Positions 5,384-43,095 of a stretch of 64,000 nt of DNA are shown piece by piece (within the stretch, counting starts at the first letter, position 1; each line of letters starts with the position of its first letter). The DNA is taken from sequence record NC_031934.1; one strand, 5' to 3'. The stretch comes from Escherichia phage MX01. Made by a program: the position numbers and the translations under genes. The notes under the pieces were generated by a model. That model did not search any database. It was not told where the DNA came from and worked only from the letters and a program-made list of their open reading frames with translations.

Positions 5384-6880
5384 ATGCAAATTCAAGTACA
5401 TTTCGATAATTTTAGTCATGTTCGTATTGAGTGTGATGAATCCACATTCTACGAACTCAGAGACTATTTTAGCTTTGAAGCTGATGGATATAAATTCAAC
5501 CCTAAATTTCGTTATGGTCAATGGGACGGACGTATTCGCCTTCTGGATTATAATCGTAAACTTCCTTATGGATTGGTTCCGCAGATTAAAAAATTCGCTG
5601 AACAATTTGAATACTCTCTGTGGATTGACCCACGTATTCTTGAACAGGAAGATATTTCTCGTGAAGATTTTGACTCATGGGTGGCATCTCAAGAAATTTA
5701 TTCAGGGTCTACCAAGATTGAGCCCCATTGGTATCAGAATGAAGCCGTATACAACGGCCTGACAAAACGTCGTGCAATTCTGAATTTACCTACATCCGCA
5801 GGTAAATCATTGATTCAGGCGCTCTTGAGTCGATATTACGTTGAGAACTATGAAGGTAAAATCCTTATTCTGGTTCCTACTACTGCACTCGTTGACCAGA
5901 TGATTAATGACTTCATCGATTATCGTCTGTTCCCTAAAGCAGCAATGCTGGGTATTCGTTCAGGTACTGCTCGTGATTCTGATGCAATGATTTACGTTTC
6001 GACTTATCAAACTGCTATTAAGCAACCTAAAGAATGGTTTGCTCAGTTTGGTATGTTTATGAACGACGAATGCCATTTGGCCACAGGTAAATCAATTTCT
6101 ACTATCATCGAAGGCCTAACCAACTGTATGTTTAAATTCGGTTTGTCTGGTTCTTTAAAAGATGGTAAAGCTAATTTAATGCAATATATGGGTTTGTTTG
6201 GTGATGTGTTTAAGCCAGTATCCACCTCCCAGTTAATGGAAGAAGGACAGGTTACAGACCTTAAAATCAACAGTATTTTCCTTCGATACCCAGACGAATT
6301 CACTGTTAAGATGAAAGGTAAAGATTACCAATCAGAAATTAAAGTCATTACTAAGGCTACTCGTCGTAATAAATGGGTTGCTAATTTAGCTGTTAAACTC
6401 GCTAAGAAAGAAGAGAACGTATTCCTGATGTTTAAAAACATCGAACACGGTAAAACTCTTTTTGAAATGGTTAAAGAGCAACATAAAGAAGTTTATTACG
6501 TATCAGGTGAAGTTAATACCGAAACGCGTAATGCTCTGAAAGTAATGGCGGAAAATGGTAAGGGTATTATTGTTGTGGCAAGTTATGGTGTGTTCTCTAC
6601 TGGTATTTCCGTTAAGAACCTTCACCACGTTGTATTTGCCCATCCAGTAAAATCTAAAATCATTGTACTCCAGACAATTGGTCGTGTACTCCGTAAACAT
6701 GCCTCTAAATCAACAGCACAGGTGTGGGATATCATTGACGACATGGGTGTTAAGCCTAAATCAGCTACGGCTAAAAAGAAATATGTTCATTTGAACTACG
6801 CCCTCAAACACGCTTTAGAACGTATTCAACGTTATGCTGATGAGAAATTTAATTACGTAATGAAACAGGTGGATTTATGA
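5384..6880 (+). CDS. uvsW: UvsW DNA/RNA helicase
   Basis: 498 aa; Walker A LPTSAGKS, DECH box and conserved N-terminus match T4 UvsW as recalled. Confidence 0.9.
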   Translation: MQIQVHFDNFSHVRIECDESTFYELRDYFSFEADGYKFNPKFRYGQWDGRIRLLDYNRKLPYGLVPQIKKFAEQFEYSLWIDPRILEQEDISREDFDSWVASQEIYSGSTKIEPHWYQNEAVYNGLTKRRAILNLPTSAGKSLIQALLSRYYVENYEGKILILVPTTALVDQMINDFIDYRLFPKAAMLGIRSGTARDSDAMIYVSTYQTAIKQPKEWFAQFGMFMNDECHLATGKSISTIIEGLTNCMFKFGLSGSLKDGKANLMQYMGLFGDVFKPVSTSQLMEEGQVTDLKINSIFLRYPDEFTVKMKGKDYQSEIKVITKATRRNKWVANLAVKLAKKEENVFLMFKNIEHGKTLFEMVKEQHKEVYYVSGEVNTETRNALKVMAENGKGIIVVASYGVFSTGISVKNLHHVVFAHPVKSKIIVLQTIGRVLRKHASKSTAQVWDIIDDMGVKPKSATAKKKYVHLNYALKHALERIQRYADEKFNYVMKQVDL

Positions 6881-9014: not shown

Positions 9015-9767
9015 ATGGCTAATATAGTACGTTGTGAAATGCCTGACGGAGTCCACCGATTTAAACCTTTTACAGTAGCTGATTATCGTGATTTTATTTT
9101 GATTCGAAATGACATGAATAATAAATCGCCTGAAGAGCAAAAACAAATTTTAGATGAGTTACTGGAAGAATACTTCGGTGAATATCCTATGTCATGGCGC
9201 CCGTATATGTTCATTGAACTTTACACGTCATCACTCGGCAAGACCAAAATTCCTATCCGATACACTTGCAGTAAGTGTGAAAAGGATAGACAAGTTTTAT
9301 TCAATTTGAAACAGACCAAGTTAGATAATCCCACAATTGAAGTGGCAGGCTTGAAGCTAACATTCAAATTTCCGGAAATAGAATATCAAGACAAATCTGA
9401 ATTGATTTTGAACACCCTCCAAACCGTAGAAGATGAAAACGGAAAATATAATTGGACTGACCTTTCTGAAGAAGACCAATTAGCGGTAATAGATGCTATA
9501 GACTTATCCACTTTAGAGGATATAGTCAAACAAACCAGCCCTATTAATTTCGAACTCAAATATGGATGCTGCAATCGTAGAACAATTGCGTATACCGATA
9601 TTTTAGAGGTGTTTAAGCTTATAGTCAATCCAGATGAGATATTTTTATTTTACCAAATAAACCATTTATTGGTAAAGAACAATTATTCATTAGAAAGCAT
9701 TATGCAGATGATTCCAATCGAACGCGGTATTGCTTTGTCTTTGGTTGAAAAGGACCTTAAGAAATGA
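9015..9767 (+). CDS. 51: Baseplate hub assembly protein gp51
   Basis: 250 aa ORF at T4 gene 51 position and size; ATGA overlap with gene 27. Confidence 0.8.
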
Positions 9768-15538: not shown

Positions 15539-15568
15539 ATAGTACCACATCCTTGTGGTGTTGTAAAC
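15539..15568 (-). promoter_or_regulatory. Early promoter overlapping the 3' end of alt paralogue 1
   Basis: Minus-sense GTTTAC, 18-nt spacer, TACTAT. Confidence 0.45.
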
Positions 15569-17691
15569 TACATTTTGAATTTATTTGATAAAGAAGAGAT
15601 GTCCAAAGATGCAGCAAGGATTTCCATAGCTTCGTTGCTTTCAGAAACGGATTCATTAACCAAGAATTGACTGAATCCATCCATCAGGCGAACTTCACCA
15701 GTTTCCATCAAATGGTCACCATCGTAAACAGATTCGCTGAGCTCTGAAGGAGGTGTTACGGTAGCTTCCATAAGGTATTTGTGAGATACTCTATCATTCA
15801 TGGCAAAAGCTGCTACTTTATCAACCTTCAACAATAATCCACGCGGAAGGATAATTTCTGCTTCTTCGGCATATTCTGTAAGGTCACCAGGAGCGATAAC
15901 TTTAACTGCTTCAGCACCTCGAATAACCATACCAATTTCAGCAATTCTATCTGCAGGACCTTCAGGTGCAATTGGATTACCAAACTCGTCTTCTTCCCAT
16001 TCTACCTCTTCATCATCGACTTCACCCACATCAGATGAACTACCGCTAGCCAATTTAAACAACTCATCAGCGGAGGATAAAGAACCTTCACCACCAACAA
16101 AAACGGCTTGGTTGTCGAGGGCCATATAATTTTTACCAAATTCGCCAAAGATGTTAGGCTTTAATGAGGCTGACACAAAGTTCTTAAAGTAAAATGTTTT
16201 GTTATCGATATTATGACGCAGAATTTTGTATGGCAAATCCTGACCACGATACAAAATAGTACCCTTAGGAAGTTTAATACCCTTAGTAAATGCTGAGTCT
16301 AAATCCTTAATCAATTTAATAGCCGTTGTATTGTTTTCGGATTCAGGTTTACCTAAAAGGAACAAGTTCATAGGAGCATATTCAGCTGCGCAATATTCAA
16401 TAATAGCATTGCTTTCGTCTTTGGTTAGGCCCTTAGGTTTAATGAGCTCACCTGAATAAGCATATGCATCACTAATAGAATCGTTAATTAGTTTATAAAC
16501 GGCTTCCATAGCGAAAGCAATTCGGGATGCTTTCTCTGAAGGGGAGCCTTTAAAACGGGTACTCAGGTTATTAACAATTTTCTTAATAATATCCAGACTA
16601 TTGGTTGTATTGATTTGCGAAAGGCCACTTAAAAGTCTATCGACTTCTGTATTAAAAAATGCCATATTATTAGAGTAAATTTCAAACCCTTGTTTATCTC
16701 TATTAGCATAATTTAGTTTAAATTTACTATCAGTCATTAAAGCGTGTGTGAGAGCAATAGTGTATCTAAAGTTGGCAAGGTCCTCGCTCTTAGATTTAAA
16801 CTGAGAAGCCTGGCGCATTTTGGTAATAGCACCTTTTTTAAAGTTCTGACTAATCTGTTCAATACCTTCGTTCTCAGGGCCTTCAGCCGTGTGAACCGGT
16901 ACAGAAGCTTCAAACTCGTTATAAACCTGCAATTCTTTAGGGGACAAAGTTTCAGGCTCAGCAGTAGAATACTGCGCCGCCGCTGCCATACGACGCGAAA
17001 TCTTAGTACGAGTAATGACAGCCTTATCAGTACGTTTCTCTTCAACTTGTGCAATAGATGCCGCTACGGCTTCGACCTTACTTACGGCCTGGCCGGTTTT
17101 CTTAGAAACATACACTTCGCCAACTTTAGACTCAACTTTAGTATAAAGATCGGCATTAATTTCAGGCATACCCTTGATATCTTCAATATTAGCACCACGA
17201 CGTACTAAAAGAACGTAGGTATGTTTTCCGCTGAATTGGAACATGTCGTCAACAACTTTAAACTTACCACCGGTACGAGCCATAGCCAAGCGAGCTAATA
17301 CGCGCTGAACGGTAGGACCTTTACCTTTCATTTTCTTAGTAGGGAAACGGAACAAAACCGCGTCCATTTTAAGTTTGTTTATTTGTTCATATATGGTATC
17401 GAAAATGGTGTTCAGTGTACCGAGTGGATCGGTACCCAAACCACCCTTGAGTTCTGCCGGAGCGCCTTTAGCAGATAAACTCATTAAGATAACATGGACG
17501 TACTTATCACCCGGCTTAACCATTTTAATAGCATCGCCTTCAGACGCGTATGAAACCATACGCGCTACTAAATTGTCATTACCAGGAGCATGGACCGCAA
17601 AAATCTGCGGTACGCCCGAGCCAGGTTTAAGATTTGTTACTGGGTAATTTTTTTTATCGCTTTTATCAAAAACTTCGTTTAAATTTTCCAT
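15568..17691 (-). CDS. alt: Alt-like ADP-ribosyltransferase, paralogue 1
   Basis: 707 aa; conserved N-terminal module; C-terminal R-S-ExE signature (LYRGQ, FVSASLKP, EAEIILPRG); unique acidic insertion. Confidence 0.85.
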   Translation of the reverse strand: MENLNEVFDKSDKKNYPVTNLKPGSGVPQIFAVHAPGNDNLVARMVSYASEGDAIKMVKPGDKYVHVILMSLSAKGAPAELKGGLGTDPLGTLNTIFDTIYEQINKLKMDAVLFRFPTKKMKGKGPTVQRVLARLAMARTGGKFKVVDDMFQFSGKHTYVLLVRRGANIEDIKGMPEINADLYTKVESKVGEVYVSKKTGQAVSKVEAVAASIAQVEEKRTDKAVITRTKISRRMAAAAQYSTAEPETLSPKELQVYNEFEASVPVHTAEGPENEGIEQISQNFKKGAITKMRQASQFKSKSEDLANFRYTIALTHALMTDSKFKLNYANRDKQGFEIYSNNMAFFNTEVDRLLSGLSQINTTNSLDIIKKIVNNLSTRFKGSPSEKASRIAFAMEAVYKLINDSISDAYAYSGELIKPKGLTKDESNAIIEYCAAEYAPMNLFLLGKPESENNTTAIKLIKDLDSAFTKGIKLPKGTILYRGQDLPYKILRHNIDNKTFYFKNFVSASLKPNIFGEFGKNYMALDNQAVFVGGEGSLSSADELFKLASGSSSDVGEVDDEEVEWEEDEFGNPIAPEGPADRIAEIGMVIRGAEAVKVIAPGDLTEYAEEAEIILPRGLLLKVDKVAAFAMNDRVSHKYLMEATVTPPSELSESVYDGDHLMETGEVRLMDGFSQFLVNESVSESNEAMEILAASLDISSLSNKFKM

Positions 17692-17694
17692 TAT

Positions 17695-19740
17695 TTACCC
17701 TTGGATGAATTTTTCTGGGATTTCGTCAAAATTAATACATGAAGCTAAAATAGGCATTATATCCACCTTGGTCGATTTGACAAATGAATCAAAAGACACA
17801 GGGTTGTCGGTCTCTGTTTCTACACCTTGGTAAACAACCAATTCGCCTGTTTCCATCAATGCATCGCCATCATAGATAACCGCATTTTCTGCTAGTTGGT
17901 CTGTGGTCTGGATATCTGCTTCCAATAATTTGGTGTTGTAGTTTCCTTTATATGAGGCATCAGTAATTTTAGTAATCTTAACTGTAGTTCCACGTGGAAG
18001 AATAACCTCTTGTTCTGTTGGAGAACCTGACAATTCACCAGGCATAATTACGTTAATAGAGTCTGCACCAGAAATTTTCCAGCCGATGTTCATCATTGTA
18101 TTTTCGGAACTCGTCAGCATACTTGGAAGAACAATTTCATTATCGCCTTGGAAAGATGTCCCAGCGCGATAGTCTTGATGTACTGCTGCCATTGCGACGT
18201 TTGATACCCAGCCGCCAAAGATAATTGGCTTAAGGGACGTTGATACATAGTTCCTGAAATAAAACAATTTTGAGTGTTTGATTTTATCAAAAGTGTTAAC
18301 ATTTAAATATTGCCCACGCCAAAGTGTAATATCAGGTGGCAATTTATGGCCAATTTCAAATGCCGCATCCATATCGTTAATTACTTCAATTACACGCTGG
18401 CTATCAATGAATTCTGCATCCTCTTCATAATAATTACCCAACAAATAATTATTAACATCGGTATAATATTGGCCACAATAAGAAGAAATAGCCTCACGCT
18501 GCTCATACTCAAATCGATTATCGCTATAACCGGCTGTAAAATGCATAAGACTTTCTGATGCTTCATTAGCAAAGTCGGTAACAGCAGCACTTATACGTTG
18601 AGCATACTCTTGTTCCCAAAGCTCTGCTGCATATTCTGACGCATCCATATTAGGAGGGGCCTCATTCACTTTTCTTTCGATAAATGCAGCTTTGCGAAGG
18701 TTAAGAATCTCTGCACATGATTCGGCAAAAATCTGCATCTGCTTCATACTGCCAACAGGAGCACGTTTAAGTTCACGATGCATACGGTTAAAAATTGGGT
18801 CAGAGTCTTCGACTCGAATTTCTTCTTTCCAAACACCATTTGCTCGCATAGCCGTATCTGCCGCGCGCATACGGTCCATAGTATTCGTTTCAGAAGGTCG
18901 AACAAAAATTTCTAGTTCTTCATAATCATCGATAAGTTCTGCCGTAGCCGGTCGACTAAACTTAGCAGCTTCTGCATCAATTTCGTCCCAACCTTCCGGA
19001 ACTTCATCTCGAGGAGAATACTGGGCTGCGGCCACAGCACGCCTAGAAATCTTGGTAGTAGTAATAACAGCCTTATCCGTACGTTTTTCTTCGACTGCCG
19101 CTATACTAGCAGATAGTGCTTCTATTTTGGTTACTGATTGGCCGGTTTTCTTAGAAACATAAACCTCACCAACTTTAGACTCAACCTTAGTGTAAAGGTC
19201 TGCATCAATTTCAGGCATACCTTTTATGTCCTCAATATTAGCTTGTTTACGAACCAGTAAAACGTATGTATGTTTGCCTGTAAATTGATACATATCATCG
19301 ACAACTTTAAACTTGCCGCCAGTACGAGCCATCGCCAAACGTGCCAATACACGTTGAACAGTAGGACCCTTACCTTTCATTTTCTTGGTAGGGAAGCGGA
19401 AAAGAACTGCATCCATTTTAAGTTTATTTACCTGTTCATATACCGTATCGAAAATGGTATTCAATGTACCAAATGGGTCAGAACCTAACCCACCTTTCAA
19501 CTCGGCTGGGGTACCCTTAGCAGACAAACTCATTAGAATAACGTGGACATATTTGTCGCCTGGCTTAACCATTTTAATAGCGTCTCCTTGAGACGCATAA
19601 GATACCATACGAGCAACCAAGTTATCATTACCTGGTGCTTGGATAGAGAAAATCTGTGGAATACCGGAACCTGGTTTAAGATTTATTACTGGATAGTTTT
19701 TAGCGGAATCACTATCAAAAACTTCGTTTAAATTTTCCAT
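17695..19740 (-). CDS. alt: Alt-like ADP-ribosyltransferase, paralogue 2
   Basis: 681 aa; same N-terminal module; LWRGQ, YVSTSLKP, EQEVILPRG. Confidence 0.85.
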   Translation of the reverse strand: MENLNEVFDSDSAKNYPVINLKPGSGIPQIFSIQAPGNDNLVARMVSYASQGDAIKMVKPGDKYVHVILMSLSAKGTPAELKGGLGSDPFGTLNTIFDTVYEQVNKLKMDAVLFRFPTKKMKGKGPTVQRVLARLAMARTGGKFKVVDDMYQFTGKHTYVLLVRKQANIEDIKGMPEIDADLYTKVESKVGEVYVSKKTGQSVTKIEALSASIAAVEEKRTDKAVITTTKISRRAVAAAQYSPRDEVPEGWDEIDAEAAKFSRPATAELIDDYEELEIFVRPSETNTMDRMRAADTAMRANGVWKEEIRVEDSDPIFNRMHRELKRAPVGSMKQMQIFAESCAEILNLRKAAFIERKVNEAPPNMDASEYAAELWEQEYAQRISAAVTDFANEASESLMHFTAGYSDNRFEYEQREAISSYCGQYYTDVNNYLLGNYYEEDAEFIDSQRVIEVINDMDAAFEIGHKLPPDITLWRGQYLNVNTFDKIKHSKLFYFRNYVSTSLKPIIFGGWVSNVAMAAVHQDYRAGTSFQGDNEIVLPSMLTSSENTMMNIGWKISGADSINVIMPGELSGSPTEQEVILPRGTTVKITKITDASYKGNYNTKLLEADIQTTDQLAENAVIYDGDALMETGELVVYQGVETETDNPVSFDSFVKSTKVDIMPILASCINFDEIPEKFIQG

Positions 19741-19743
19741 TAT

Positions 19744-21828
19744 TTACCCTTGGATGAATTTTTCTGGGATGTCATAGAGGTCTATGCATGAAGCCAAAAG
19801 AGACAGCACATCAACCCGTGTAGATTTAACAAATGAATCAAAAGATACAGGGCTTTCGGAAGTATCGAAATCATCTTGATATACGACCAACTCGCCGGTT
19901 TCCATTAGTACGTCACCATCATACACCACAGATTCTTGAAGCTCATCTGTTGTCATAACTTCGGCTTGGATGAGTTTTGTATTATTAGATGTTGTTCCAT
20001 CATTATTAGAAGCATCTGTTATTTTATTAACTTTGACCATTAATCCACGTGGTAGAATAACTTCAGCTTCAGTTGCTATTCCGAGATTTCCTGGATATAC
20101 AACATTAACTTTATGAGCCCCATCAATCGCCCATCCTATTTGAACTTTAACGTATTCAGGATTTTCTTTATATGCTCTTATTTCATTAGGATTGATAGTT
20201 ATTCCTTCTTCATTTTTATCGACTGTCAATTCATTGCGAACTTCAGGTTCTAAAAGACCAATACCTGCGTGGGTAACACCAAAACGTCCGAAAATGATAG
20301 GAGTTAATGAAGTAGATACAAAATTTCTAAAATAAAACACTTTATTTTTAACTAGTGCTTCGTATATAGGAGCAGTCATACTCTGTGCACGATAAACTGT
20401 GATGCCTTCTGGTATACGGTCGCCATTTTCAAAAGCAGAATCCAAATTATTAACTGCAGATTCGATATCTTTTTCACTCATAATCTCATAGTTATGAGGA
20501 TTGTAACGACCTAAAAGAAGGTTATTTATATCGCCGTATCCAGAGCCACAATATTCTCTGATGCCACGCTTTTGCGATGGGGTATATTTAGAACCCTCAC
20601 GAGCAATAGTAATATCAACCATTGAACCACCACCCACACCAGCAAAACTATATACGCGTTTTTTAATGAATTTGGTCTTGGCTGCTTTCCACTTGGACTC
20701 GGTCAATTCATTCCAGAGGTCATCAGGTTGTCCTTTACGAGTTTTGTTATGCGTAGCCAACCACTCGCCTTTGTATTCTTCGAAAACGGTATTAATAGCA
20801 GAGGCATATTTTTCTAGAGCTTTAACAGATGTCAAAGGTTCGTTTTTGATGGCTGATAGGATTTTCTCTTTAATTTTCTCTTTGATTTCACCTATACCGT
20901 GAAGAGGAAACATTTTATAATCGTAATGCAATTCTTCAGCAGTACCTTCAGCTACTATATTAGCAACCTTATTTTTAGCCGCAGGAGAATTGTTATTAGT
21001 AACCATTTCCTGGGCCTCAGGGATTAATGGAACTGTTGCCGGTTTATTAAAATCCGCTGCAGTAGCTTCATATTTCTTAAACAATTCACTTTCATTACGA
21101 TAAGATTCCAATGATTGGCTTGCTGCAATGGCGCGCCTAGAAATCTTAGTCTTGGTTATAACCATTTTATCAGTGCGACGTTCTTCAACCTTAGCAATAC
21201 TGCCGGCAATAGCAGTTTCTTTAGTAACCTGCACACCTTCTTTTTTGGAAATATAAACTTCACCGACATCAGAATCTACCTTAGTATACAATTCAGCATT
21301 AATTCCAGGCATACCTTTGATATCTTCGATATCAGCTTGTTTACGGACTACCAGGATGTAAGTATGTTTACCGGTAAATTGGTACATAGCCGGAACCACT
21401 TTAAAACGTCCACCGGTTTTCTGTGTTACCAAACGTTGGATAATACGTTGAACGATAGGGCCTTGACCTTTCATTTTCTTGGTAGGAAAACGGAACATCA
21501 CGGCATCCATACGAAGCTTTTTAACTTGGTCATAAACCACATCAAAAATAGTATTAATCGCATCTACAGGAGTAGGGCCAAGGCCACCTTTAAGTTCGGC
21601 TGGAGTACCTTTAGCTGAAAGGCTCATAAGGATAACGTGGGCATATTTATCACCCATTTTAACTTGTTTAATAGCATCACCTTCAGAAGCGTAGGATACC
21701 ATACGAGCAACTAATTGGGACTCTGCATCGCCAATCTTCCAAATCTGGGGTACTTTAAGTTTTGGGTTCAAGTTTACTGTAGGCAGAGTGCCTTCGGACT
21801 CAAACACTTCATTTAATTGTTCGGTCAT
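19744..21828 (-). CDS. alt: Alt-like ADP-ribosyltransferase, paralogue 3
   Basis: 694 aa; same N-terminal module; VYRAQ, FVSTSLTP, EAEVILPRG. Confidence 0.85.
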   Translation of the reverse strand: MTEQLNEVFESEGTLPTVNLNPKLKVPQIWKIGDAESQLVARMVSYASEGDAIKQVKMGDKYAHVILMSLSAKGTPAELKGGLGPTPVDAINTIFDVVYDQVKKLRMDAVMFRFPTKKMKGQGPIVQRIIQRLVTQKTGGRFKVVPAMYQFTGKHTYILVVRKQADIEDIKGMPGINAELYTKVDSDVGEVYISKKEGVQVTKETAIAGSIAKVEERRTDKMVITKTKISRRAIAASQSLESYRNESELFKKYEATAADFNKPATVPLIPEAQEMVTNNNSPAAKNKVANIVAEGTAEELHYDYKMFPLHGIGEIKEKIKEKILSAIKNEPLTSVKALEKYASAINTVFEEYKGEWLATHNKTRKGQPDDLWNELTESKWKAAKTKFIKKRVYSFAGVGGGSMVDITIAREGSKYTPSQKRGIREYCGSGYGDINNLLLGRYNPHNYEIMSEKDIESAVNNLDSAFENGDRIPEGITVYRAQSMTAPIYEALVKNKVFYFRNFVSTSLTPIIFGRFGVTHAGIGLLEPEVRNELTVDKNEEGITINPNEIRAYKENPEYVKVQIGWAIDGAHKVNVVYPGNLGIATEAEVILPRGLMVKVNKITDASNNDGTTSNNTKLIQAEVMTTDELQESVVYDGDVLMETGELVVYQDDFDTSESPVSFDSFVKSTRVDVLSLLASCIDLYDIPEKFIQG

Positions 21829-21864
21829 AATAATTCCTCTTTAATAACCTTATTTATGCCAGAA

Positions 21865-21880
21865 AAGGCCCGAAGGCCTT
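21865..21880 (-). terminator. UUCG-tetraloop hairpin upstream of the alt array
   Basis: Minus-sense AAGGCC-UUCG-GGCCUU. Confidence 0.55.
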
Positions 21881-22061
21881 AAAGTGGTAGCAACGTACGG
21901 TATACTTCAAATTTAGGACCCTTTTCATAGCGGTCGAAATTATCTTTAAAATCAGCGAATGCGATTTCATTTTCAAATTCAAGGACAATTTGGGACACTG
22001 CAGTGGAGACATCCCCACCTTCTTTATATCCAATAACCACGGTTTCTAAATAAGCTTTCAT
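21879..22061 (-). CDS. Hypothetical small protein (60 aa) downstream of ligase
   Basis: ORF starting 1 nt after the ligase stop (TAAtATG junction). Confidence 0.45.
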   Translation of the reverse strand: MKAYLETVVIGYKEGGDVSTAVSQIVLEFENEIAFADFKDNFDRYEKGPKFEVYRTLLPL

Positions 22062-22062
22062 A

Positions 22063-23586
22063 TTATAGTCCAGTTTGAGACCAATCACCAAATACATCTT
22101 CAAATGTATCAGCTTCTGTTTTATCGAAACGCCAACCTTTAATGATTGGAAGGAAAATACCTACAGTATCGGTACGTCCTTTAGAATGAACCCAACCATT
22201 ACATTCACAGTCAGCAATACGTCCAATCAACTTACCTTCACGAGCTTGTTTCATAAGAAGTTCACGGTCTAAATCAGGACGGTCTTCCAATGGAATCAAT
22301 ACTTTTTTACCTGATTTATCTTTCTTATGGGTGGTATCTTTAAAGCCTGAACCACAGTCGCTTGTAATTCGACGACAACGTGATACCAACTCGACACCAC
22401 CTAGCTTGTTAGGGTCCTTCGAGTGTTCATAATAACCCACCACTTCTAAAGCAATATCGATTACTTCTTTGAACTTGATAAGATTCTTAGAACGACGGTT
22501 TTCCCAGTAGGAGTCCATGTTCTTAAGGATAATGCCTTCCAGACCCTGGTCGACATATTTCTTATAAACGACTTTAGCTTCTTCAAGATTATTAACCCAC
22601 CGGTTTTCGATAGCTTCAACACGCGTTGTACCATGCAATACGACATTATGAGCAACCATAAGTTCTAAGGCTGTAAAGCGTACATCATACTTATCGCCTT
22701 TAATTTTACCTTCGGAATATACGACATCCAATGGGACATAATCCCATGCCTGTAATACCATACCAGCGGCTTCAGTAGCCGAAATAGTTCCTTGAAGAGC
22801 TTTGTTAGCCAAGCCATTTGACGTAGAACGATTGGCGACAGTTTGGAATTCCTTAGCCTTACTTAATTCAGGAAGTTCCTCGTCAAACATACTAAACAAA
22901 TCATTAGATGCTTTAGGTTCTACCTTAGGAGTATGGTAAACTAATTCGCCATCAATCATAACGCCATTAGGATGGCGTTGTCGAGCTTCTTCGGTCATGG
23001 CCATTAATTCAGCCGCCAAAAGATTAAGCCCTTGATATTCGTTACCACCACGAGTAAGGAATGTCACACCATCGTTACGAACTTCGGCAAAACAACGAGC
23101 ACCATCAGCTTTTAATTGAGCAAACGCTGGCCATTTAATATTTTTCTTAATCAAAGCTTCATCATAAGAACTCGCCAACATCTGCGGTTGTTCAGGGATT
23201 AAACCTTTCCAAACCTTGTTAGCAATAGAAATCGATGCACCACATTCAAGGTCGCGCATCATTACACGACGTAATACCTCGGCATCCGGGGCCTTAGCAT
23301 CAGCAATGATTTGAGCCAGTTCTTCAATAGCCGCATTACCCGTAATCTTACGTGTGGCTAATGTGAATTCAGCGAAATCAAGAAGGTCTTCAAGAGTAAT
23401 CATACCAAAGGATTGAGATGTAAATCCAGGTTCTGGCCACTTTTTAATACCGTAGTTCAGACGACGGGTATAAGCCATACGATAAACACGTTTCAGAAGC
23501 TCATTGTCCTTTTCACGAGCAATAATGGCTTCTTTAGCTTTAGTAGAATCAATAGCAGCAATTTCGTTTAAAATATCTAAAATCAT
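22063..23586 (-). CDS. 30: ATP-dependent DNA ligase gp30
   Basis: Start at MILDILNEIAAI with GAGGT Shine-Dalgarno; KADGAR adenylation motif; matches T4 ligase as recalled. Confidence 0.9.
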   Translation of the reverse strand: MILDILNEIAAIDSTKAKEAIIAREKDNELLKRVYRMAYTRRLNYGIKKWPEPGFTSQSFGMITLEDLLDFAEFTLATRKITGNAAIEELAQIIADAKAPDAEVLRRVMMRDLECGASISIANKVWKGLIPEQPQMLASSYDEALIKKNIKWPAFAQLKADGARCFAEVRNDGVTFLTRGGNEYQGLNLLAAELMAMTEEARQRHPNGVMIDGELVYHTPKVEPKASNDLFSMFDEELPELSKAKEFQTVANRSTSNGLANKALQGTISATEAAGMVLQAWDYVPLDVVYSEGKIKGDKYDVRFTALELMVAHNVVLHGTTRVEAIENRWVNNLEEAKVVYKKYVDQGLEGIILKNMDSYWENRRSKNLIKFKEVIDIALEVVGYYEHSKDPNKLGGVELVSRCRRITSDCGSGFKDTTHKKDKSGKKVLIPLEDRPDLDRELLMKQAREGKLIGRIADCECNGWVHSKGRTDTVGIFLPIIKGWRFDKTEADTFEDVFGDWSQTGL

Positions 23587-23596
23587 AATCACCTCA

Positions 23597-23875
23597 TTAG
23601 TCATGGATTCTATTATAAGCCACATCAGCCAAAAGCAAGTCTAATCGCTTATGATAAGAGAACACAAATCTCATTCGCCCATCAGATTTGAACTTGGACA
23701 TAAAGTGGACATAAATGAATCCCTGTTCGACGCATTCGCGCCAAACAGGATGGTCTTTAGCCGGATTTACATCAAATGAGTAATCATGATTCACATGACG
23801 AATAAACTGGTTTACATGACCATAATCCATTGTAGTGGTAGGACCATAGTCTGAAATTGTATGAACTACAAACAT
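23597..23875 (-). CDS. Hypothetical protein (92 aa), 30.1-position
   Basis: ORF starting 1 nt after the upstream stop (TAAtATG). Confidence 0.45.
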   Translation of the reverse strand: MFVVHTISDYGPTTTMDYGHVNQFIRHVNHDYSFDVNPAKDHPVWRECVEQGFIYVHFMSKFKSDGRMRFVFSYHKRLDLLLADVAYNRIHD

Positions 23876-23876
23876 A

Positions 23877-24515
23877 TTAACCTCGAGCAATCCATTCAAC
23901 TGCGGCATTATTACGAAGGGATTCGATTGCTGCGATATCGTCCCATGAATTAACCTTTACGGCTAAATTAGGTTTAAAGTCACGTTCACCACGAGCTAAC
24001 CAATAAACTTGGATATCCATGAGAACATTAGATGCAGCATCACAGTGGTGAGCCAAATCATCAACATAAAACTTAATACGTTTACCGTACGTATTTTTAG
24101 CTCTTATGAAGAGGTCTTCTTTTGATTCTGAATGACCACACATCAGAATCTCCTTGAATGCGCCAGGGAACAAAGCATTCAAATTGAATTGTCTATTCAG
24201 CAGTGCATCAATTGAGTCGCCTAGCGCAGTCACGGCTACAAAATCGAAGTCTTTTTTGAGCTTGTTGATATGTTTTAATGCGTCCATGTAAGGAGACAGA
24301 TAACGAATAAAATCTGACTGATTGTACTTCTCGATTAAACGAGCGCCTAATTCATTATCACAATTAAACAGCTCACCAGGAGATAAGAAACGTTCGTCCT
24401 GAATCATATTCAAAATATGTTCTAAAGGCAAATTATATTTCTGTGCGAAATAAGGCAAGCCGGACTGCCAACTTAAACATACTCCATCGATATCTGTTAA
24501 GATAACTGGTTTCAT
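23877..24515 (-). CDS. HAD-superfamily phosphatase-like protein
   Basis: 212 aa; HAD motif I DIDGV near the N-terminus and a DD motif (VDDLAHH) near the C-terminus. Confidence 0.5.
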   Translation of the reverse strand: MKPVILTDIDGVCLSWQSGLPYFAQKYNLPLEHILNMIQDERFLSPGELFNCDNELGARLIEKYNQSDFIRYLSPYMDALKHINKLKKDFDFVAVTALGDSIDALLNRQFNLNALFPGAFKEILMCGHSESKEDLFIRAKNTYGKRIKFYVDDLAHHCDAASNVLMDIQVYWLARGERDFKPNLAVKVNSWDDIAAIESLRNNAAVEWIARG

Positions 24516-24979
24516 AATAAATCTCTCAATTTGTTTAGGATGTCGATAAACTCTTTTTCAGTTAGTATTGTATCACATTCTGTAAGGTGGCTCGCCATCG
24601 AATGCTTTAAAACTTTGCCCTTTGTAGCTTGTAATGCGTCGCGGAATCCTTTGTTTTGGAGCGCTGCTTCAAAATATGCATTTGTATACAACTCTTTCCA
24701 TGATGTAGAGTATCTTGAAAAGGGAATTCCAAGCCAGAAAAGCGTCCCACGGTCCGCAGCTCTTGCATAAGCTCTTCCAGTTTGTTGTGCGGCCAGACCG
24801 GACATCCTAAATATACGTTTTTGTTGTTCATGATTTCTCACCTTACACCCTTGGAGGAATCCTTCGAGTCCACCAAATTGGATACCATCCATAACGAAAG
24901 GCCATTTAGCAAAGTTACTTAATGCACACGATGGCCACGGAAAATTACTTCTGATTTCTAACTCAGACATCTTTGACAC
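24512..24979 (-). CDS. NADAR (YbiA-like, DUF1768) domain protein
   Basis: 155 aa; SNFAKWPFVMDGIQFGGLEGFLQGCK and downstream segment resemble E. coli YbiA as recalled; no search run. Confidence 0.5.
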   Translation of the reverse strand: MSKMSELEIRSNFPWPSCALSNFAKWPFVMDGIQFGGLEGFLQGCKVRNHEQQKRIFRMSGLAAQQTGRAYARAADRGTLFWLGIPFSRYSTSWKELYTNAYFEAALQNKGFRDALQATKGKVLKHSMASHLTECDTILTEKEFIDILNKLRDLL

Positions 24980-25175
24980 TTATAATTTCGACATCAGCCC
25001 AATGCCCGTAACCAGGCAGACGGTCTTCAATAGATAATCCGCCATCAGATTTCAGCATTTTAATTGTTTTAGTATATGGTTCATCTTGCGGATGCACAGG
25101 AGATAAATCAGTTACACGATAAGTCACTTCGACCATTTCCGTACCTAATAATTTCTGAATCAATTTCTTAACCAT
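24963..25175 (-). CDS. Hypothetical protein (70 aa)
   Basis: ORF in early-gene run, same strand, tightly packed. Confidence 0.45.
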   Translation of the reverse strand: MVKKLIQKLLGTEMVEVTYRVTDLSPVHPQDEPYTKTIKMLKSDGGLSIEDRLPGYGHWADVEIISVKDV

Positions 25176-25176
25176 A

Positions 25177-25371
25177 TTATCCTCGCTTTAAACATTTGAT
25201 TACAGACAGTTCACCACCCGTGCGAACATCTTCAGTTCCATCGACCCATAGGACGGTGTAGGCTTCTTTAATAGTAACATTACCTAATTTAAAAGCAGGT
25301 AGAACCTTTGAAATCATTCCAGGAATACCTACACCTTTTAGCTGAACAGTTTGTGATAAGAATAGTTGCAT
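25177..25371 (-). CDS. Hypothetical protein (64 aa)
   Basis: ORF in early-gene run. Confidence 0.4.
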   Translation of the reverse strand: MQLFLSQTVQLKGVGIPGMISKVLPAFKLGNVTIKEAYTVLWVDGTEDVRTGGELSVIKCLKRG

Positions 25372-25658
25372 TAGAACCTCATCTGAAAGCCATGTGATTT
25401 AACATTACCGCCGTAGATGTCAGACGTATTGACTTCACGGGCAGCGCTCGGGTCGATATTGATATCATGGTTGAGCTTAGTGATTGCTAGGGTATCACGA
25501 CCATTAACAGTACGGAATTCTACCGGGCATACAACATCGGCGTAAGCCTTAATAGATTCACGAGTGGGCTGTTTGTCGGCAGGAACGTCTTTACCCGCTT
25601 TAGAGAAAACAACTTCACAGAAATTTTTACGAGTATCGAAATAAGTGGTCATAAACAT
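25371..25658 (-). CDS. Hypothetical protein (95 aa)
   Basis: ORF with GAGGA Shine-Dalgarno and an upstream hairpin. Confidence 0.5.
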   Translation of the reverse strand: MFMTTYFDTRKNFCEVVFSKAGKDVPADKQPTRESIKAYADVVCPVEFRTVNGRDTLAITKLNHDINIDPSAAREVNTSDIYGGNVKSHGFQMRF

Positions 25659-25698
25659 AATATTTTCCTCAAAGGGGCCGAAGCCTCCATTTTTAAGA

Positions 25699-26064
25699 TT
25701 AGATATCGAATTCGTTCAGAACTACATCAAAGATTGCTTCCAGGTGTTCAGGTTTAGCTCGGTTGCTCAGGATGTGACGAATCCAAGTTTTAACCAGAAG
25801 CTTACGATTAACACCGTTCCAGCAAGGATGGGTACCTAAATCACGTTGACGGAAATCATCATCTAAAGCGATTTTAAAAGTAGAACCTTCCATTGTGATT
25901 GAAACCGTAATACCATTTTCAAAGCGCATATAAACGTAGTTAGGAGTCATGCACTGTTCGATTTCGCACACCGCGCCGTTGTTGTGTTTCCACAGGCAAA
26001 TAACTTCAGAAGAACCAGCGATACCGTTAGAAACATATTTACGTTCGAAGTTGATGTAGTTCAT
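25699..26064 (-). CDS. Hypothetical protein (121 aa)
   Basis: ORF preceded by GGAGAATAAAATG and the shared leader. Confidence 0.5.
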   Translation of the reverse strand: MNYINFERKYVSNGIAGSSEVICLWKHNNGAVCEIEQCMTPNYVYMRFENGITVSITMEGSTFKIALDDDFRQRDLGTHPCWNGVNRKLLVKTWIRHILSNRAKPEHLEAIFDVVLNEFDI

Positions 26065-26105
26065 TTTATTCTCCAGTTTGTTTTCGTATTATTTGGTACA
26101 GGTCT

Positions 26106-26134
26106 ATAATAACACAACCTGTACCAAAGTAAAA
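26106..26134 (-). promoter_or_regulatory. Candidate early promoter (variant -35)
   Basis: Minus-sense TTTTAC, 17-nt spacer, TATTAT, then the conserved leader. Confidence 0.35.
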
Positions 26135-26137
26135 CAT

Positions 26138-26470
26138 TTATTTCACAACATTCCAATTTTTCATATCAAGTTTACCAACTTTTTTCATCTGAGCAATCAG
26201 ACGTTCAGCGCGTGTACGGGCATTAACATAATAGAATTCACCATTTTTGTTTTCTTCAATACGACCAGTAATTACAGTTTTCAGTTCATAAATCCAACCT
26301 GTAAAGAAGTTGTGAAGCTCGATGGTGAACGTGAAATCAGTACCCGTACCTTCAGTTGTTTCAACTTCGATGATATCACCTTCAACTGCAGTCAGGACCC
26401 ACATGGTTTCTTGATATCCGCCGTTGAAACATTTAGCTTTAACAGATGCATTCAGATTTACAGTTTTCAT
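26138..26470 (-). CDS. Hypothetical protein (110 aa)
   Basis: ORF preceded by the same leader and Shine-Dalgarno as the neighbouring gene. Confidence 0.5.
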   Translation of the reverse strand: MKTVNLNASVKAKCFNGGYQETMWVLTAVEGDIIEVETTEGTGTDFTFTIELHNFFTGWIYELKTVITGRIEENKNGEFYYVNARTRAERLIAQMKKVGKLDMKNWNVVK

Positions 26471-26511
26471 TTTATTCTCCAGTTTGTTTTCGTATTATTT
26501 GGTACATGTCT

Positions 26512-26540
26512 ATAGTATCATGCCTACCGGAGATGTACAC
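26512..26540 (-). promoter_or_regulatory. Candidate early promoter (variant -35 GTGTAC)
   Basis: Minus-sense GTGTAC, 17-nt spacer, TACTAT, conserved leader. Confidence 0.4.
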
Positions 26541-26568
26541 CATTTTTTAAAGATTTAGAAACAAAAAT

Positions 26569-26586
26569 GGGACTCCGAAGAGTCCC
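26569..26586 (-). terminator. UUCG-tetraloop hairpin
   Basis: Minus-sense GGGACUC-UUCG-GAGUCCC, perfect 7-bp stem. Confidence 0.6.
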
Positions 26587-26591
26587 ATAAC

Positions 26592-27731: not shown

Positions 27732-27789
27732 ATTTAATCCATATTGTTTTGTTGATAGATTAATAATAACACGCTATTCTTAAAGCATA

Positions 27790-28325: not shown

Positions 28326-28870
28326 TATTCACCACAATAGTTTTGAATTGATTCCCAGTTCAGAGAACGGAGACCTGTACGATTATACTGGATAACTTCT
28401 ATGCCTGATTCACGGAGGATATCGTCCCATCCTTCAGGATTTCGGTCATATAGCTCAGCATAAACCAATGTTTTAATTCCAGACTGCGCAATAGACTTAG
28501 CACAATCTGCACATGGAGATAACGTCACGTACATCGTAGCGCCGTCAATAGAACTTCCGGTACGAGCTGCAAACAAAATGGCATTCAGTTCAGCATGGAT
28601 TTCATTTTTGGATGACCATGCTGCATGAGCCATACGGTGTTCTTTAAGAAGAACGGATTTGTGCGACATCCGCGCTGGGTCATACACAACACGGGTCCAG
28701 TCTTGTTCCACAGCGTGGTCACAACAGTTAACACCACCGGATGGTGAACCGTTATACCCTGTAGAAATAATGCGGCCATTCTTTTCAATAACCGCGCCCA
28801 CTTTCCATGAACAACATTTTGATTCCTGAGAAATCAGATATGCAATCTGAAGGTATGTGCTTGCTTTCAT
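28325..28870 (-). CDS. cd: dCMP deaminase
   Basis: 181 aa; zinc-binding cytidine/dCMP deaminase motifs HAELNA and PCADC. Confidence 0.9.
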   Translation of the reverse strand: MKASTYLQIAYLISQESKCCSWKVGAVIEKNGRIISTGYNGSPSGGVNCCDHAVEQDWTRVVYDPARMSHKSVLLKEHRMAHAAWSSKNEIHAELNAILFAARTGSSIDGATMYVTLSPCADCAKSIAQSGIKTLVYAELYDRNPEGWDDILRESGIEVIQYNRTGLRSLNWESIQNYCGE

Positions 28871-30408: not shown

Positions 30409-31611
<1,203 letters not shown>

Positions 31612-31615
<4 letters not shown>

Positions 31616-32094
31616 ACACCAAGTTCCTTATAAAGTTCTTCACGGCAAGTTTTAAGGGTTTTACCCGATTCGTAAGCAACACTTTCAGGAACATCGCCAA
31701 GGGTTACTGCGGATTGCATTTGACCGTGACGTTTAGCCGCGTATTCAAAACTTTTCACTAGCTCACGAATACGTTCTTTTTCATTATATTCTTCAATGAA
31801 TTCAGGGTATTCCCAAACCGGACGCATCATACGATACCACTGTTGGATGGTGATATAATTACTTCCATCCAAATTAATAATCTGCGAAGGCTCAATAGAC
31901 CCTGGAGCATAAAAAGTTACCTGTCTTACTACATCAATACCGTCCACAATAGCCCAAGCAAAATCGAAAGTTGCCTTCTTTTCAATTGGCGTGCTTGCAC
32001 AGGACCCTAGCTTAAGGAGCTTTTGTAATGCAGGAGATTTGACACCTGAAATGTATTCAGGCTTAGCCACAAAACTGTTATCACGTAAAGTCAT
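31612..32094 (-). CDS. Hypothetical protein (160 aa), extra relative to T4 order
   Basis: Start set at MTLRDNSFV; no motif recognised. Confidence 0.45.
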
Positions 32095-32261
32095 AATAAT
32101 TTCCTCAATTTTTATAATCCGTAGGAGCATTATACTCCGCTCCCAAGAGTTTGTAAACTACTTTCCAAAAATACCATTTATACACATGCTAAGCACGATT
32201 CCAAAACAAAAGCATGTAAAGCCAAATAGAATGACATCCGACCCATCGATACAAGACTCAA

Positions 32262-32552
32262 TCATTTGCACTTCTCCTCTTTTAGTCCGGAACGATAATA
32301 ACATAACATAGATTTCTGGTCTTGTACATATCTTTTTACGTCATTCAACCAAATACGATGTTCTTGGGAATCTTCAAATGGCATTCCAACCCAAGCTTTA
32401 CCATCGATTACCTTAACCTGCCATTTAACATTATGTTTGGCAATAGGTTGTGGCCATGAAGGATGTAGTTGTTGCTTAGGCACTACAGGGATGTCCTGGG
32501 CACATCCAACTAACAAGCCAATAGATAATACTACCACAGATAATTTAATCAT
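32262..32552 (-). CDS. Outer-membrane spanin lipoprotein (o-spanin)
   Basis: 96 aa; signal peptide with lipobox LLVGC; ATGA overlap with the upstream i-spanin gene. Confidence 0.7.
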   Translation of the reverse strand: MIKLSVVVLSIGLLVGCAQDIPVVPKQQLHPSWPQPIAKHNVKWQVKVIDGKAWVGMPFEDSQEHRIWLNDVKRYVQDQKSMLCYYRSGLKEEKCK

Positions 32553-34600: not shown

Positions 34601-35038
34601 TTATCCTTTTAATCGGTGTTGGGTATTCCAAGGTGGATTAAATTTCTTTATGAACATTGGCTCTTCAAGAGACATGGTCTCAACCGACATAGTTCCAAGT
34701 TCGTTAGTCATCGACAGATTAAAGCACTGCCGTGCATAGAACTCTACCTTTTTACCTGCCATTAATGCTTCATGAATCAGAATGGACTTGGTCGAATCCG
34801 ACGTTTGGTCCTTACGATTAATAGCGGTTCGGTAGTAGTTGATGCGCTTACGAAGATTTTTAGTCTTCCCAATGTAGACTAGTATATCATCAACCGCTAT
34901 AGCATATATGACATTTTGTTTATTTGGTACTGTGAGTGGAGCTATGGTGGCGTCATCTTGGAGTTCTAGGGTGACGTACTTGATAAAGCTAAATTCGTCT
35001 GCGATTTCTTTCATAGCAATAAGGGGCCGAAGCCCCAT
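34601..35038 (-). CDS. denA: Endonuclease II (GIY-YIG)
   Basis: 145 aa; GIY-YIG-like VIYAI...LVYIGKTKNLRKR; between rnlA and nrdB as in T4. Confidence 0.7.
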   Translation of the reverse strand: MGLRPLIAMKEIADEFSFIKYVTLELQDDATIAPLTVPNKQNVIYAIAVDDILVYIGKTKNLRKRINYYRTAINRKDQTSDSTKSILIHEALMAGKKVEFYARQCFNLSMTNELGTMSVETMSLEEPMFIKKFNPPWNTQHRLKG

Positions 35039-38657: not shown

Positions 38658-40343
<1,686 letters not shown>

Positions 40344-40689: not shown

Positions 40690-40950
40690 TTATTTTTGAA
40701 TTTTATCAAGCCATTTACCAAGTTTAATCATTTCTTTGGTAGCTTTTTCCATACTTCTAAATTTAACCAGTAAAGGTTGGGCATCAACACCCATAACTAA
40801 GGTGGTTACAAGACTATGTTCACCTACAAGCCATAATGAATAAGTTTGGATATCGAGCCCGTAATTTCGGTCTTTATGAACTCGTACACCCATCACTTCA
40901 AATTTCTCACTGGCTTTTTCTACTGCATCCAGGAAATCATCTTTAGTCAT
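40690..40950 (-). CDS. Hypothetical protein (86 aa)
   Basis: Start set at MTKDDFLDAV, 1 nt after the upstream stop (TAAtATG). Confidence 0.45.
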   Translation of the reverse strand: MTKDDFLDAVEKASEKFEVMGVRVHKDRNYGLDIQTYSLWLVGEHSLVTTLVMGVDAQPLLVKFRSMEKATKEMIKLGKWLDKIQK

Positions 40951-40951
40951 A

Positions 40952-41417: not shown

Positions 41418-41437
41418 GGGAAGACCGAAGTCTTCCC
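41418..41437 (-). terminator. UUCG-tetraloop terminator downstream of gene 32
   Basis: Minus-sense GGGAAGAC-UUCG-GUCUUCCC, perfect 8-bp stem followed by a T-run. Confidence 0.7.
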
Positions 41438-43081: not shown

Positions 43082-43095
43082 TTTATAAACTATAT

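Follow-up and report, generated by a model that had tools for sequence, protein, structure and literature searches.

Densely packed stop-start junctions and translational coupling between neighbouring genes are textbook features of prokaryotic operons and T4-like phages. In Escherichia coli, coupling requires very short distances between stop and start codons and tolerates +2 nt, a gap at which the efficiency in three tested gene pairs was 95, 80 and 30% of that with the native -1 overlap (PMC10666635). In phage T4, the clamp-loader pair 44/62 has been cited as translationally coupled, no initiation region can be recognised for half of the free-standing homing endonuclease genes, and the promoters of gene 32 are embedded in segG, the gene for an endonuclease that cleaves in gene 32 and whose activity is listed in a table (PMC2988022). 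Coupled expression of a downstream gene that lacks a usable Shine-Dalgarno sequence (SD) beside the upstream stop was the subject of Ivey-Hoyle and Steege 1989, as listed in PMC12548453.

We compared these systems with the gene junctions of Escherichia phage MX01 (NC_031934.1) in a stretch of 64,000 nucleotides, referred to here as the window, which is that of a T4-like Dhakavirus and is about 97% identical to phages IME281 and Bp7. The gene map of the window (n=90, coding density 94%) was built with start codons carried over from the IME281 and IME540 annotations and verified with family profiles that match from residue 1, while the starts of 30.3b, gp28 and segG were set via T4 homology. Among the 81 same-strand junctions, stop-start distances cluster at -4 (12 overlaps of the form (A/T)TGA), -1 (7 junctions of the TAATG class) and +1 (5 one-base gaps). 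The same clustering is found in T4, for which we computed from the curated annotation (255 junctions) 40 cases at -4, 25 at -1, 10 at +1 and 9 at +2. Six of the T4 junctions have the exact sequence TAAtATG, and the T4 44-62 and 59-segG junctions are TGAtATG. The initial annotation of the window had mentioned ATGA overlaps in addition to one-base gaps, and these are indeed present, since the -4 class consists of 11 ATGA overlaps and one TTGA. On the minus strand, the ATGA overlaps lie at 24512-24515 (30.3b to 30.3a, as an example), 28867-28870, 31313-31316, 31612-31615, 32549-32552, 39515-39518, 43746-43749, 57395-57398 and 58584-58587, and on the plus strand at 6877-6880 and 9764-9767.

The one-base gaps all lie on the minus strand. 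Three of them (22059-22065, 23873-23879 and 40948-40954) had been described at the outset as TAA-t-ATG junctions, and each is indeed a stop, one base and an ATG in the 90-gene map; the list was incomplete, however, as a fourth such junction lies at 25173-25179 and a variant with A as the spacer, TAAaATG, at 62784-62790. At 22059-22065, the stop of the DNA ligase gene, gp30 (22063-23586), precedes the start of a 60-aa PF24647 gene (21879-22061), whose SD is weak (GGA at 22069-22071, -3.0 kcal/mol); in relatives this junction is +1 in 6, -4 in 3 and -1 in 2. At 23873-23879, 30.3a (23877-24515) is followed by 30.2, a DUF3045 gene (23597-23875) with a strong SD (GAGG at 23881-23884, 5-nt spacing, -6.6 kcal/mol), and the junction is kept in 6 of 7 close relatives, the orthologous T4 junction being -1. 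Likewise, 30.5a (25177-25371) and 30.4 (24963-25175) meet at 25173-25179, again with a strong SD for the downstream gene (GAGG at 25181-25184, 5-nt spacing, -7.5 kcal/mol), in an arrangement kept in 9 of 10 relatives and replaced by ATGA at the orthologous T4 junction. At 40948-40954, the stop of frd.2 (PF03197, 40952-41341) abuts an 86-aa phrog_4423 gene (40690-40950) whose SD is TAAGG at 40957-40961 (-3.7 kcal/mol); this junction is +1 in 10 of 11 relatives, with C as the spacer in two near-identical phages, and the two genes form a unit flanked by early-promoter-like sites at 41400-41373 and 40686-40659. Finally, the junction at 62784-62790, between a 65-aa and a 99-aa gene, has the same layout with another spacer base, and a hairpin there takes up part of its SD, GGTGA (z=-1.46).

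The candidate T4-type early promoters (TTTACA, then TG.TAnnAT) are located in the longer spacers, and window scans detected neither promoter-like sites nor convincing terminator-like ones between the two genes of a junction pair. Because the runs are free of such internal sites, the members of each pair very likely share one transcript. The pairs share with coupled pairs a common strand and, as judged from the sequence, a common transcript, together with stops and starts that overlap or lie a few nucleotides apart. A point against coupling is a MotA-box-like site at 22453-22429, within the ligase gene, as transcripts from it, if made, would force independent initiation of the 60-aa gene.

The strength of the SDs was then compared between classes of genes, with the window and T4 pooled. 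Tight junctions come with weaker SDs than spaced genes do (-4.49 vs -5.88 kcal/mol, p=9e-9), yet these are far stronger than those of random ATGs (-4.49 vs -1.97 kcal/mol, p=9e-37), and more than half of the tight-junction genes have an SD of -4 kcal/mol or better, compared with 15% of random ATGs. SDs that are weakened and still well above random are what would be expected from SD-assisted initiation combined with some coupling, and do not fit reinitiation alone. Furthermore, when 80-nt contexts around the junctions were folded, the four TAAtATG start regions folded no better than dinucleotide shuffles (z=+0.44, -0.13, -0.12 and +1.37), so that we rejected burial of these start sites in RNA structure, and de novo binding of the 30S subunit would be unblocked. 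These data bear directly on the initial proposal that the downstream genes are reached by coupling and reinitiation instead of independent initiation. Its first half is reasonable, given that co-transcription is very likely, that a one-base gap appears workable and that T4 44-62 provides an analogue; the exclusion of independent initiation lacks support in view of the strong SDs of 30.2 and 30.4 and the unremarkable RNA structure at all four sites.

We therefore favour, as the probable reading, ordinary compact junctions in polycistronic pre-replicative units, with the downstream genes served both by SD-guided initiation and by SD-assisted reinitiation. The junctions would be compact gene boundaries in the transcription units, early and middle, that a T4-like phage expresses before replication, and at these boundaries a ribosome finishing the upstream gene at UAA would end one base from the next AUG, with the SD for that AUG carried by the last codons of the upstream gene. 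Two routes would then most likely lead to the downstream gene, SD-guided initiation and SD-assisted termination-reinitiation, in shares that would differ by pair; the two genes with weak SDs (60 aa and 86 aa) probably owe more to reinitiation than 30.2 and 30.4 do. A gap of 1 nt falls within the termination-reinitiation range of E. coli, where pairs at +2 nt still work (PMC10666635), and coupling at these junctions is thus plausible, although the junction layout permits coupled translation and does not prove it.

The best-surviving alternative is that the junctions reflect compaction and nothing else, selection or a deletion bias having removed non-coding DNA while the downstream genes depend on de novo, SD-guided 30S binding with negligible coupling. 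We regard this as unlikely for the set as a whole, although negligible coupling could hold for 30.2 and 30.4 given their strong, accessible SDs. Every gene downstream of a TAAtATG has at least a minimal SD, two of them strong, the start regions are unstructured, and the majority of tight-junction genes keep a good SD, all of which pure compaction would explain; it accounts less well for the weakening of SDs at tight junctions relative to spaced genes, which suggests relaxed SD dependence, for the strong coupling seen in E. coli when stop and start are -1 to +2 nt apart (PMC10666635), and for T4 44-62, which has the same layout and is cited as coupled (PMC2988022). Far less probable is coupling through structure, in which a ribosome-binding site buried in a hairpin is opened solely by the ribosome translating the upstream gene. 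The fold at the 30.3a-30.2 junction does place the SD and AUG inside a modest hairpin, and the paired SD at 62784-62790 points the same way, but none of the four TAAtATG contexts surpasses its dinucleotide shuffles.

The least credible reading, close to dismissal, is that TAATATG is itself a functional motif (a repressor-binding site, a nuclease site or a promoter element) that recurs at gene boundaries. In its favour are the modest over-representation of the string in the window (23 copies vs 14.8 +/- 3.4 expected), an above-background frequency of T in the spacer and its position within cTATAATatg at 22059-22065. Only 4 of the 23 copies are junctions and 16 lie away from any gene end, and the excess vanishes once gene-end-linked copies are removed. 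In the window map, TAA is the stop codon of 60 of 90 genes and T is the base before the start codon in 43 of 90, and multiplying the preference for T after a stop by that for T before a start gives an expected 57% T in one-base spacers; the observed 4 of 5 (P about 0.16-0.29), or 12 of 15 when pooled with T4 (P=0.06), is accounted for by these stop and start preferences. Nor are the seven bases conserved at orthologous sites beyond coding and context constraints: across relatives and genera the junctions drift to +1, -1, -4 and +7 to +9 and to ATGA, TAATG and TGATG, with TAAcATG in near-identical relatives and TGATG or ATGA at the same junction in others. A promoter at 22059-22065 with cTATAATatg as its -10 element was rejected, as the TATAAT has no acceptable -35 partner and a consensus scan lists no promoter there. 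That the seven bases are identical follows from stop and start habits, and the string is not a separate signal: TAA is the preferred stop, T is preferred after stops, and T or A is preferred before starts.

Two of the remaining copies abut a stop codon without a gene start. In MotA-dependent middle promoters, the MotA box, TGCTT(t/c)A, precedes a TAnnnT -10 element by about 12 nt. Both copies fit this arrangement (TAAtATGCTTTAA; 3482-3457 and 27787-27763, with TGCTTTA, 11-12 nt and TATAAT or TATTAT), and are thus candidate MotA-type middle promoters whose overlap with the string is an unrelated coincidence; the tiny ORFs at these two positions, considered as possible genes, encode just ML* and were discarded. 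The combination of MotA box and -10 was found 10 times vs 2.7 expected, a number reached by none of 100 shuffles.

The tight junction after gene 59 led to a different outcome. The initial annotation had described a 205-aa ORF without an SD of its own, and none is indeed found at ATG 43081 (duplex energy 0), the start used in several GenBank records for this 205-aa version; that ATG is, however, probably the wrong start. An SD-like AAGGG (43109-43113, minus strand, in the last codons of gene 59; -5.0 kcal/mol) stands 9 nt upstream of a TTG at 43099. From this TTG, which overlaps the gene 59 stop (TGA at 43096-43098, TTG at 43097-43099; T-TGA overlap 43096-43099), the minus-strand gene runs over 211 codons (42464-43099). 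The gene product is 58% identical to T4 SegG over the full length (E=9e-86) and matches phrog_7504 'homing endonuclease' (E=3e-110). The N-terminus read from TTG 43099, (M)NIVYKM, resembles the MNIVYWF of T4 SegG, and N(I/V)VY stands at the N-terminus of 9 of 11 family representatives. In a structure model (mean pLDDT 84), strands are predicted at residues 2-8 and 21-26, the former being the first strand of a GIY-YIG fold (pLDDT about 94), and IVY (residues 3-5) and YIG (22-24) are both present only with the TTG start. The Pfam GIY-YIG profile gave no score for this product, nor for T4 SegG itself, and Foldseek alone returned no significant GIY-YIG match (E=0.72). Taken together, full-length homology, the modelled GIY-YIG fold and a free-standing slot between genes 59 and 32 are those of a SegG-type endonuclease gene.

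The conserved N-terminal strand NIVY, encoded upstream of the called ATG, makes TTG 43099, six codons earlier, the most likely start on the basis of sequence and model, with ATG 43081 as a formal alternative. A relative at 87% identity keeps the T-TGA, its sole change upstream of the ATG being synonymous, and one NCBI record already has the 211-aa form. We note as counterpoints that UUG is a weak start and that the SD spacing, 9 nt, approaches the upper limit of what is usual; the gene could also be degenerating, with the change from ATG to TTG as a decay mutation. The gene is sporadic, being present in IME540, Bp7, LHE83 and PSD2002 and absent in IME281. TTG 43108 is unlikely as a start, as the AAGGG directly abuts it (spacing 0), and a late promoter TATAAATA just before the segG ATG was also rejected, since the sequence there is TATAAAAT and no exact TATAAATA match lies at this position.

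A TTG start overlapping the gene 59 stop fits coupling better than the initial annotation had realised. Given a weak UUG that overlaps the gene 59 UGA (U-UGA), the protein probably comes, in low amounts, from ribosomes that have just finished gene 59. A bolder version, which we put forward tentatively and consider somewhat doubtful, is that in this Dhakavirus lineage SegG comes solely from ribosomes that end gene 59 and reinitiate at the UUG and, separately, that the +1 UAAU-AUG junctions form a class of their own, tuned to a particular reinitiation efficiency. If so, the dose of this selfish gene would follow the translation of an essential replication gene, which would also set its upper limit, and the TGAtATG of T4, the TTGA of the window and the ATG of a third relative, apparently a start three codons further upstream that lies 13 nt inside gene 59, would represent different evolutionary answers to one problem.

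The small new point of this work is thus that the segG-like gene probably starts six codons earlier than called. Dhakavirus records of this gene (205 or 203 aa, some of them 'hypothetical protein') probably describe a GIY-YIG homing endonuclease of 211 aa that begins at a TTG, and the gene would add a further example to the phage homing endonuclease genes that lack normal initiation regions and depend on a neighbour for expression. In addition, tight junctions can be used with confidence for fixing start codons.

Comparison with known systems places the window junctions close to those of T4, in which 44-62 (TGA-t-ATG) and 62-regA (TAA-a-ATG) have the same stop-N-start layout with one base in a pre-replicative polycistronic unit. 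Unlike 44/62, the window pairs encode small proteins of unknown function that are not known complex subunits, and the SDs of 30.2 (-6.6 kcal/mol) and 30.4 (-7.5 kcal/mol) contrast with that of T4 gene 62 (-4.0 kcal/mol). General prokaryotic coupled pairs resemble the window in their peaks at -4 (ATGA) and -1 (TAATG/TGATG), in a short positive tail and in the placement of the SD inside the 3' end of the upstream gene (PMC10666635, PMC6728339, PMC12548453), whereas T4-like phages show a secondary +1/+2 class and a more extreme gene density. The coupled pair of Ivey-Hoyle and Steege comes from a filamentous ssDNA phage, and only the segG-like gene of the window resembles its 'defective site' case. 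The junction in that pair is reportedly UAA-c-AUG. The closest counterpart of the segG-like gene is T4 SegG (formerly 32.1), with which it shares the slot between 59 and 32, the N-terminal NIVY...YIG, a tight junction with gene 59 in place of an ordinary initiation region, and an embedded gene 32 middle-promoter-like site, in the window a candidate MotA-box site that lies in the 3'-terminal part of the gene and ahead of gene 32 (42456-42480, minus strand; TGCTTTA, 12 nt, TATAAT). The two differ in how the start is reached: T4 segG begins with an ATG one base past the gene 59 TGA (TGAtATG), with no SD (-0.2 kcal/mol), whereas the window gene has a TTG overlapping the TGA (TTGA) and AAGGG 9 nt upstream.

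All three places at which the initial annotation had reported identical TAA-t-ATG junctions between early genes carry TAATATG on the minus strand, and in each case it consists of the TAA stop of a real gene followed by the ATG of the next: ligase to a 60-aa PF24647 gene (22059-22065), 30.3a to 30.2, which encodes a DUF3045 protein (23873-23879), and frd.2 to an 86-aa gene (40948-40954). The observation is correct, with a slight under-count, as a fourth TAAtATG junction joins 30.5a to 30.4 (25173-25179); a fifth junction with a one-base gap has A as its spacer (TAAaATG, 62784-62790). Among the 81 same-strand junctions in the window, 12 have a stop-to-start distance of -4 nt (11 ATGA, bearing out the overlaps described for other genes, and one TTGA), 7 lie at -1 (TAATG) and 5 at +1. 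A further 5 fall between +2 and +4, and junctions no wider than +4 make up 38 of the 81.

These counts come from a map of 90 genes that together take up 94% of the window, in which start codons were carried over from the annotations of IME281 and IME540 via tblastn and cross-checked with Pfam and PHROG profiles matching from residue 1; three starts were corrected by T4 homology. Positions 20000-26000 are ~97% identical to T4-like coliphages of the genus Dhakavirus (IME281, Bp7, IME540), and annotated relatives show the T4 gene order: 24, rnlB, hoc, inh, uvsW, uvsY, 25-29, 48, 54, alt, 30 (ligase), 30.x, rIII, 31, cd, pseT, alc, rnlA, denA, nrdB, nrdA, td, frd, 32, 59, 33, dsbA, rnh, 34-38, t, asiA, 52, ndd, denB and rIIB. 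The alt-like (RNA polymerase ADP-ribosyltransferase) genes form a tandem of three paralogues (707, 681 and 694 aa; 15568-21828, minus strand; mutual identity 40-47%), compared with only two in IME281, the closest RefSeq relative; the gaps between the three are 3 nt (TAAataATG), and the 25-nt contexts at 17691 and 19740 are identical. The gene 30.3 homologue (24512-24970, minus strand; PF08010, E=4e-64), with the N-terminus MSELEIRSNF as in T4, is not matched by any annotated gene in the RefSeq record of IME281; its start shows next to no Shine-Dalgarno (SD) sequence (-1.0 kcal/mol) and has an 8-nt overlap with 30.4, as in T4. A 172-aa gene (phrog_4482, unknown function; 31612-32130, minus strand) is absent from the corresponding IME281 slot, and IME540 has an extra 228-aa ORF between 59 and 33 (L002 2064-2750) that the window lacks.

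Sites resembling T4-type early promoters (TTTACA, 16-17 nt with TG, TAnnAT) lie in longer spacers of the minus strand (e.g. 26133, 29713, 32157, 33448, 40397, 40686, 41400 and 45315), and terminator-like hairpins occur at 15212-15189, 26588-26567, 35036-35023 and 41437-41418. Since none of the early-promoter-like or terminator-like sites found in the window separates the members of a tight pair, the junction pairs are very likely co-transcribed. The frd.2/86-aa pair looks like a two-gene unit, and the run from 30.6 to alt.-3 resembles a single long unit with entry points inside it. In addition, a 55-nt direct repeat (26060-26114 and 26466-26520; 95% identical) contains a -10-like element, leader, SD (GGAG) and the ATG of 30.6 and 30.8, and has the appearance of a promoter-leader cassette that was duplicated. 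The intergenic spacers after nrdB (35023-35036), gene 32 (41418-41437), 30.9 (26567-26588) and 30.6 (25674-25687) hold short G+C-rich hairpins with CTTCGG loops, which resemble the stable UUCG-loop hairpins of T4 transcripts. A further hairpin lies inside the 30.2 coding region (23721-23750, minus strand; 13-bp stem, 7 G-C pairs, no T-rich tail).

TAATATG as a string occurs 23 times in the window, against 14.8 +/- 3.4 expected: 4 copies form junctions, 1 coincides with the start of gene 32, 2 adjoin only a stop and 16 lie away from any gene end. At gene 32 (42359-42369, minus strand; TAAtATGtctATG) there are two in-frame ATGs; the spacing of the TAAGG SD favours 42365, and the IME281 annotation uses the second (42359), aligned with T4 MFKRK. 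Both stop-only copies read TAAtATGCTTTAA, followed ~12 nt on by TATAAT or TATTAT, matching the MotA box of T4 middle promoters (TGCTTTA, 11-12 nt, TATAAT/TATTAT); they lie on the minus strand directly after the TAA of a 69-aa gene (3457-3482) and of 31.1 (27763-27787). Both fit a MotA box better than a start codon, and the "ORF" there is only ML*. Such MotA-box-like sites are enriched (10 versus 2.7 expected; 0/100 shuffles reach 10), with further examples within the ligase gene (22429-22453) and at 44402-44426 and 59995-60019.

It had been proposed that the junctions imply coupling and reinitiation instead of independent initiation. Coupling at the window junctions is plausible, with a direct precedent in the T4 clamp-loader pair (44→62), which is cited as coupled (PMC2988022) and has the junction TGA-t-ATG. 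In E. coli, reinitiation drops steeply with distance, three pairs shifted from -1 to +2 nt retaining 95, 80 and 30% efficiency (PMC10666635), and coupling efficiency varies with distance, RNA structure and SD (PMC12548453). Measured as duplex energy with the 16S rRNA 3' tail, the SDs at the four TAAtATG junctions are GAGG with 5-nt spacing at 30.2 (-6.6 kcal/mol) and 30.4 (-7.5), TAAGG at the 86-aa gene (-3.7) and GGA at the 60-aa gene (-3.0). For T4 and the window pooled, overlapping or tight-junction genes (n=165) average -4.49 kcal/mol versus -5.88 for other genes (n=189; p=9e-9), as would be expected if a nearby terminating ribosome helps; random internal ATGs average only -1.97 (p=9e-37 against tight-junction genes). 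An SD of -4 or better occurs at 50-62% of tight-junction genes; for spaced genes the share is 74-90%, and for random ATGs it is 15%. SDs are thus retained at tight junctions, where ribosomes could still initiate independently, and the four start regions are no more stably folded than their shuffled versions (z=+0.44, -0.13, -0.12 and +1.37), so that de novo 30S binding is not blocked. The published experiments cited above agree with SDs that are both retained and relaxed. The proposed mechanism is therefore partly reasonable but over-stated: exclusive reinitiation is not supported by the sequence.

The 205-aa ORF after gene 59 was correctly said to lack its own SD: ATG 43081, 14 nt past the gene 59 TGA (ATATAGTTTATAAA), has none at all. 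The ORF is 58% identical to T4 SegG over its full length (E=9e-86), matches phrog_7504 "homing endonuclease" (E=3e-110) and occupies the T4 segG location between 59 and 32. It is missing in IME281 and found in IME540, Bp7, LHE83 and PSD2002, a patchy distribution such as a mobile gene should show. Translated from the in-frame TTG 43099, the protein begins (M)NIVYKMTW, compared with MNIVYWFTF in T4 SegG; N(I/V)VY is N-terminal in 9/11 family representatives, and the two exceptions start downstream of the motif, one of them (a 203-aa VR5 record) at the internal Met that the 205-aa version also uses. Because this motif is conserved, and the product from ATG 43081 would lose most of the N-terminal strand and the "GIY" element, TTG 43099 is most likely the start. 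TTG 43099 shares bases with the gene 59 stop (T-TGA) and has AAGGG at a distance of 9 nt upstream (-5.0 kcal/mol). Further support for this start comes from a relative of 87% identity, in which the T-TGA arrangement persists and the sole change in the six upstream codons is synonymous (GTT to GTA), with divergence in the residues right after the ATG; one NCBI record, too, already carries the 211-aa form. The probable correction of the start codon in this SegG homologue is the sole new item here. In T4, 59→segG reads TGA-t-ATG and lacks an SD (-0.2). This accords with a published observation that no initiation region can be recognised for half of the free-standing homing endonuclease genes in T4, which may rely on coupling or ribosome scanning (PMC2988022). 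A MotA-box-like promoter lies inside the 3' end of the segG-like gene, upstream of gene 32 (42480-42456, minus strand), and a promoter within the 3' end of T4 segG is likewise reported.

Within the genus, most TAAtATG junctions are retained along with the SD in the upstream gene's last codons: 6/7 loci for 30.3a→30.2, 9/10 for 30.5a→30.4 and, counted as +1, 10/11 for frd.2→86-aa. The spacer is C in two phages despite a 99-100% identical downstream protein, and at the ligase junction six relatives have +1, three have -4 and two have -1. Orthologous T4 junctions are ATGA (30→alt.1 and 30.5→30.4) or -1 (30.2→30.1); those of RB69 are -1 and +9, one in a Klebsiella phage is +7, and the Acinetobacter phage Acj61 ligase junction is +1, as in the window. 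It is the tightness of the junctions that is maintained, not the TAATATG string.

The seven-base identity itself follows from ordinary stop and start preferences. TAA accounts for 60/90 stops and ATG for 88/90 starts in the map, and at non-tight sites T is the next base after 37% of stop codons and the base before 47% of start codons; multiplied together, these context preferences give an expected T frequency of 57% in one-base spacers, compared with 12/15 observed in T4 and the window (P=0.06) and 4/5 in the window alone (P about 0.16-0.29). The clustering of stop-start distances is real, yet it is a known general property: the curated T4 annotation has, among 255 same-strand junctions, 40 at -4, 25 at -1, 4 at 0, 10 at +1 and 9 at +2. 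Six of the ten +1 junctions in T4 read TAAtATG (srd→dda.1, 61.2→61.1, dmd→61.4, a-gt.5→a-gt.4, nrdC.1→nrdC and 13→14) and two further ones TGAtATG (44→62 and 59→segG). As a feature, these junctions are ordinary for T4-like genomes and already known.
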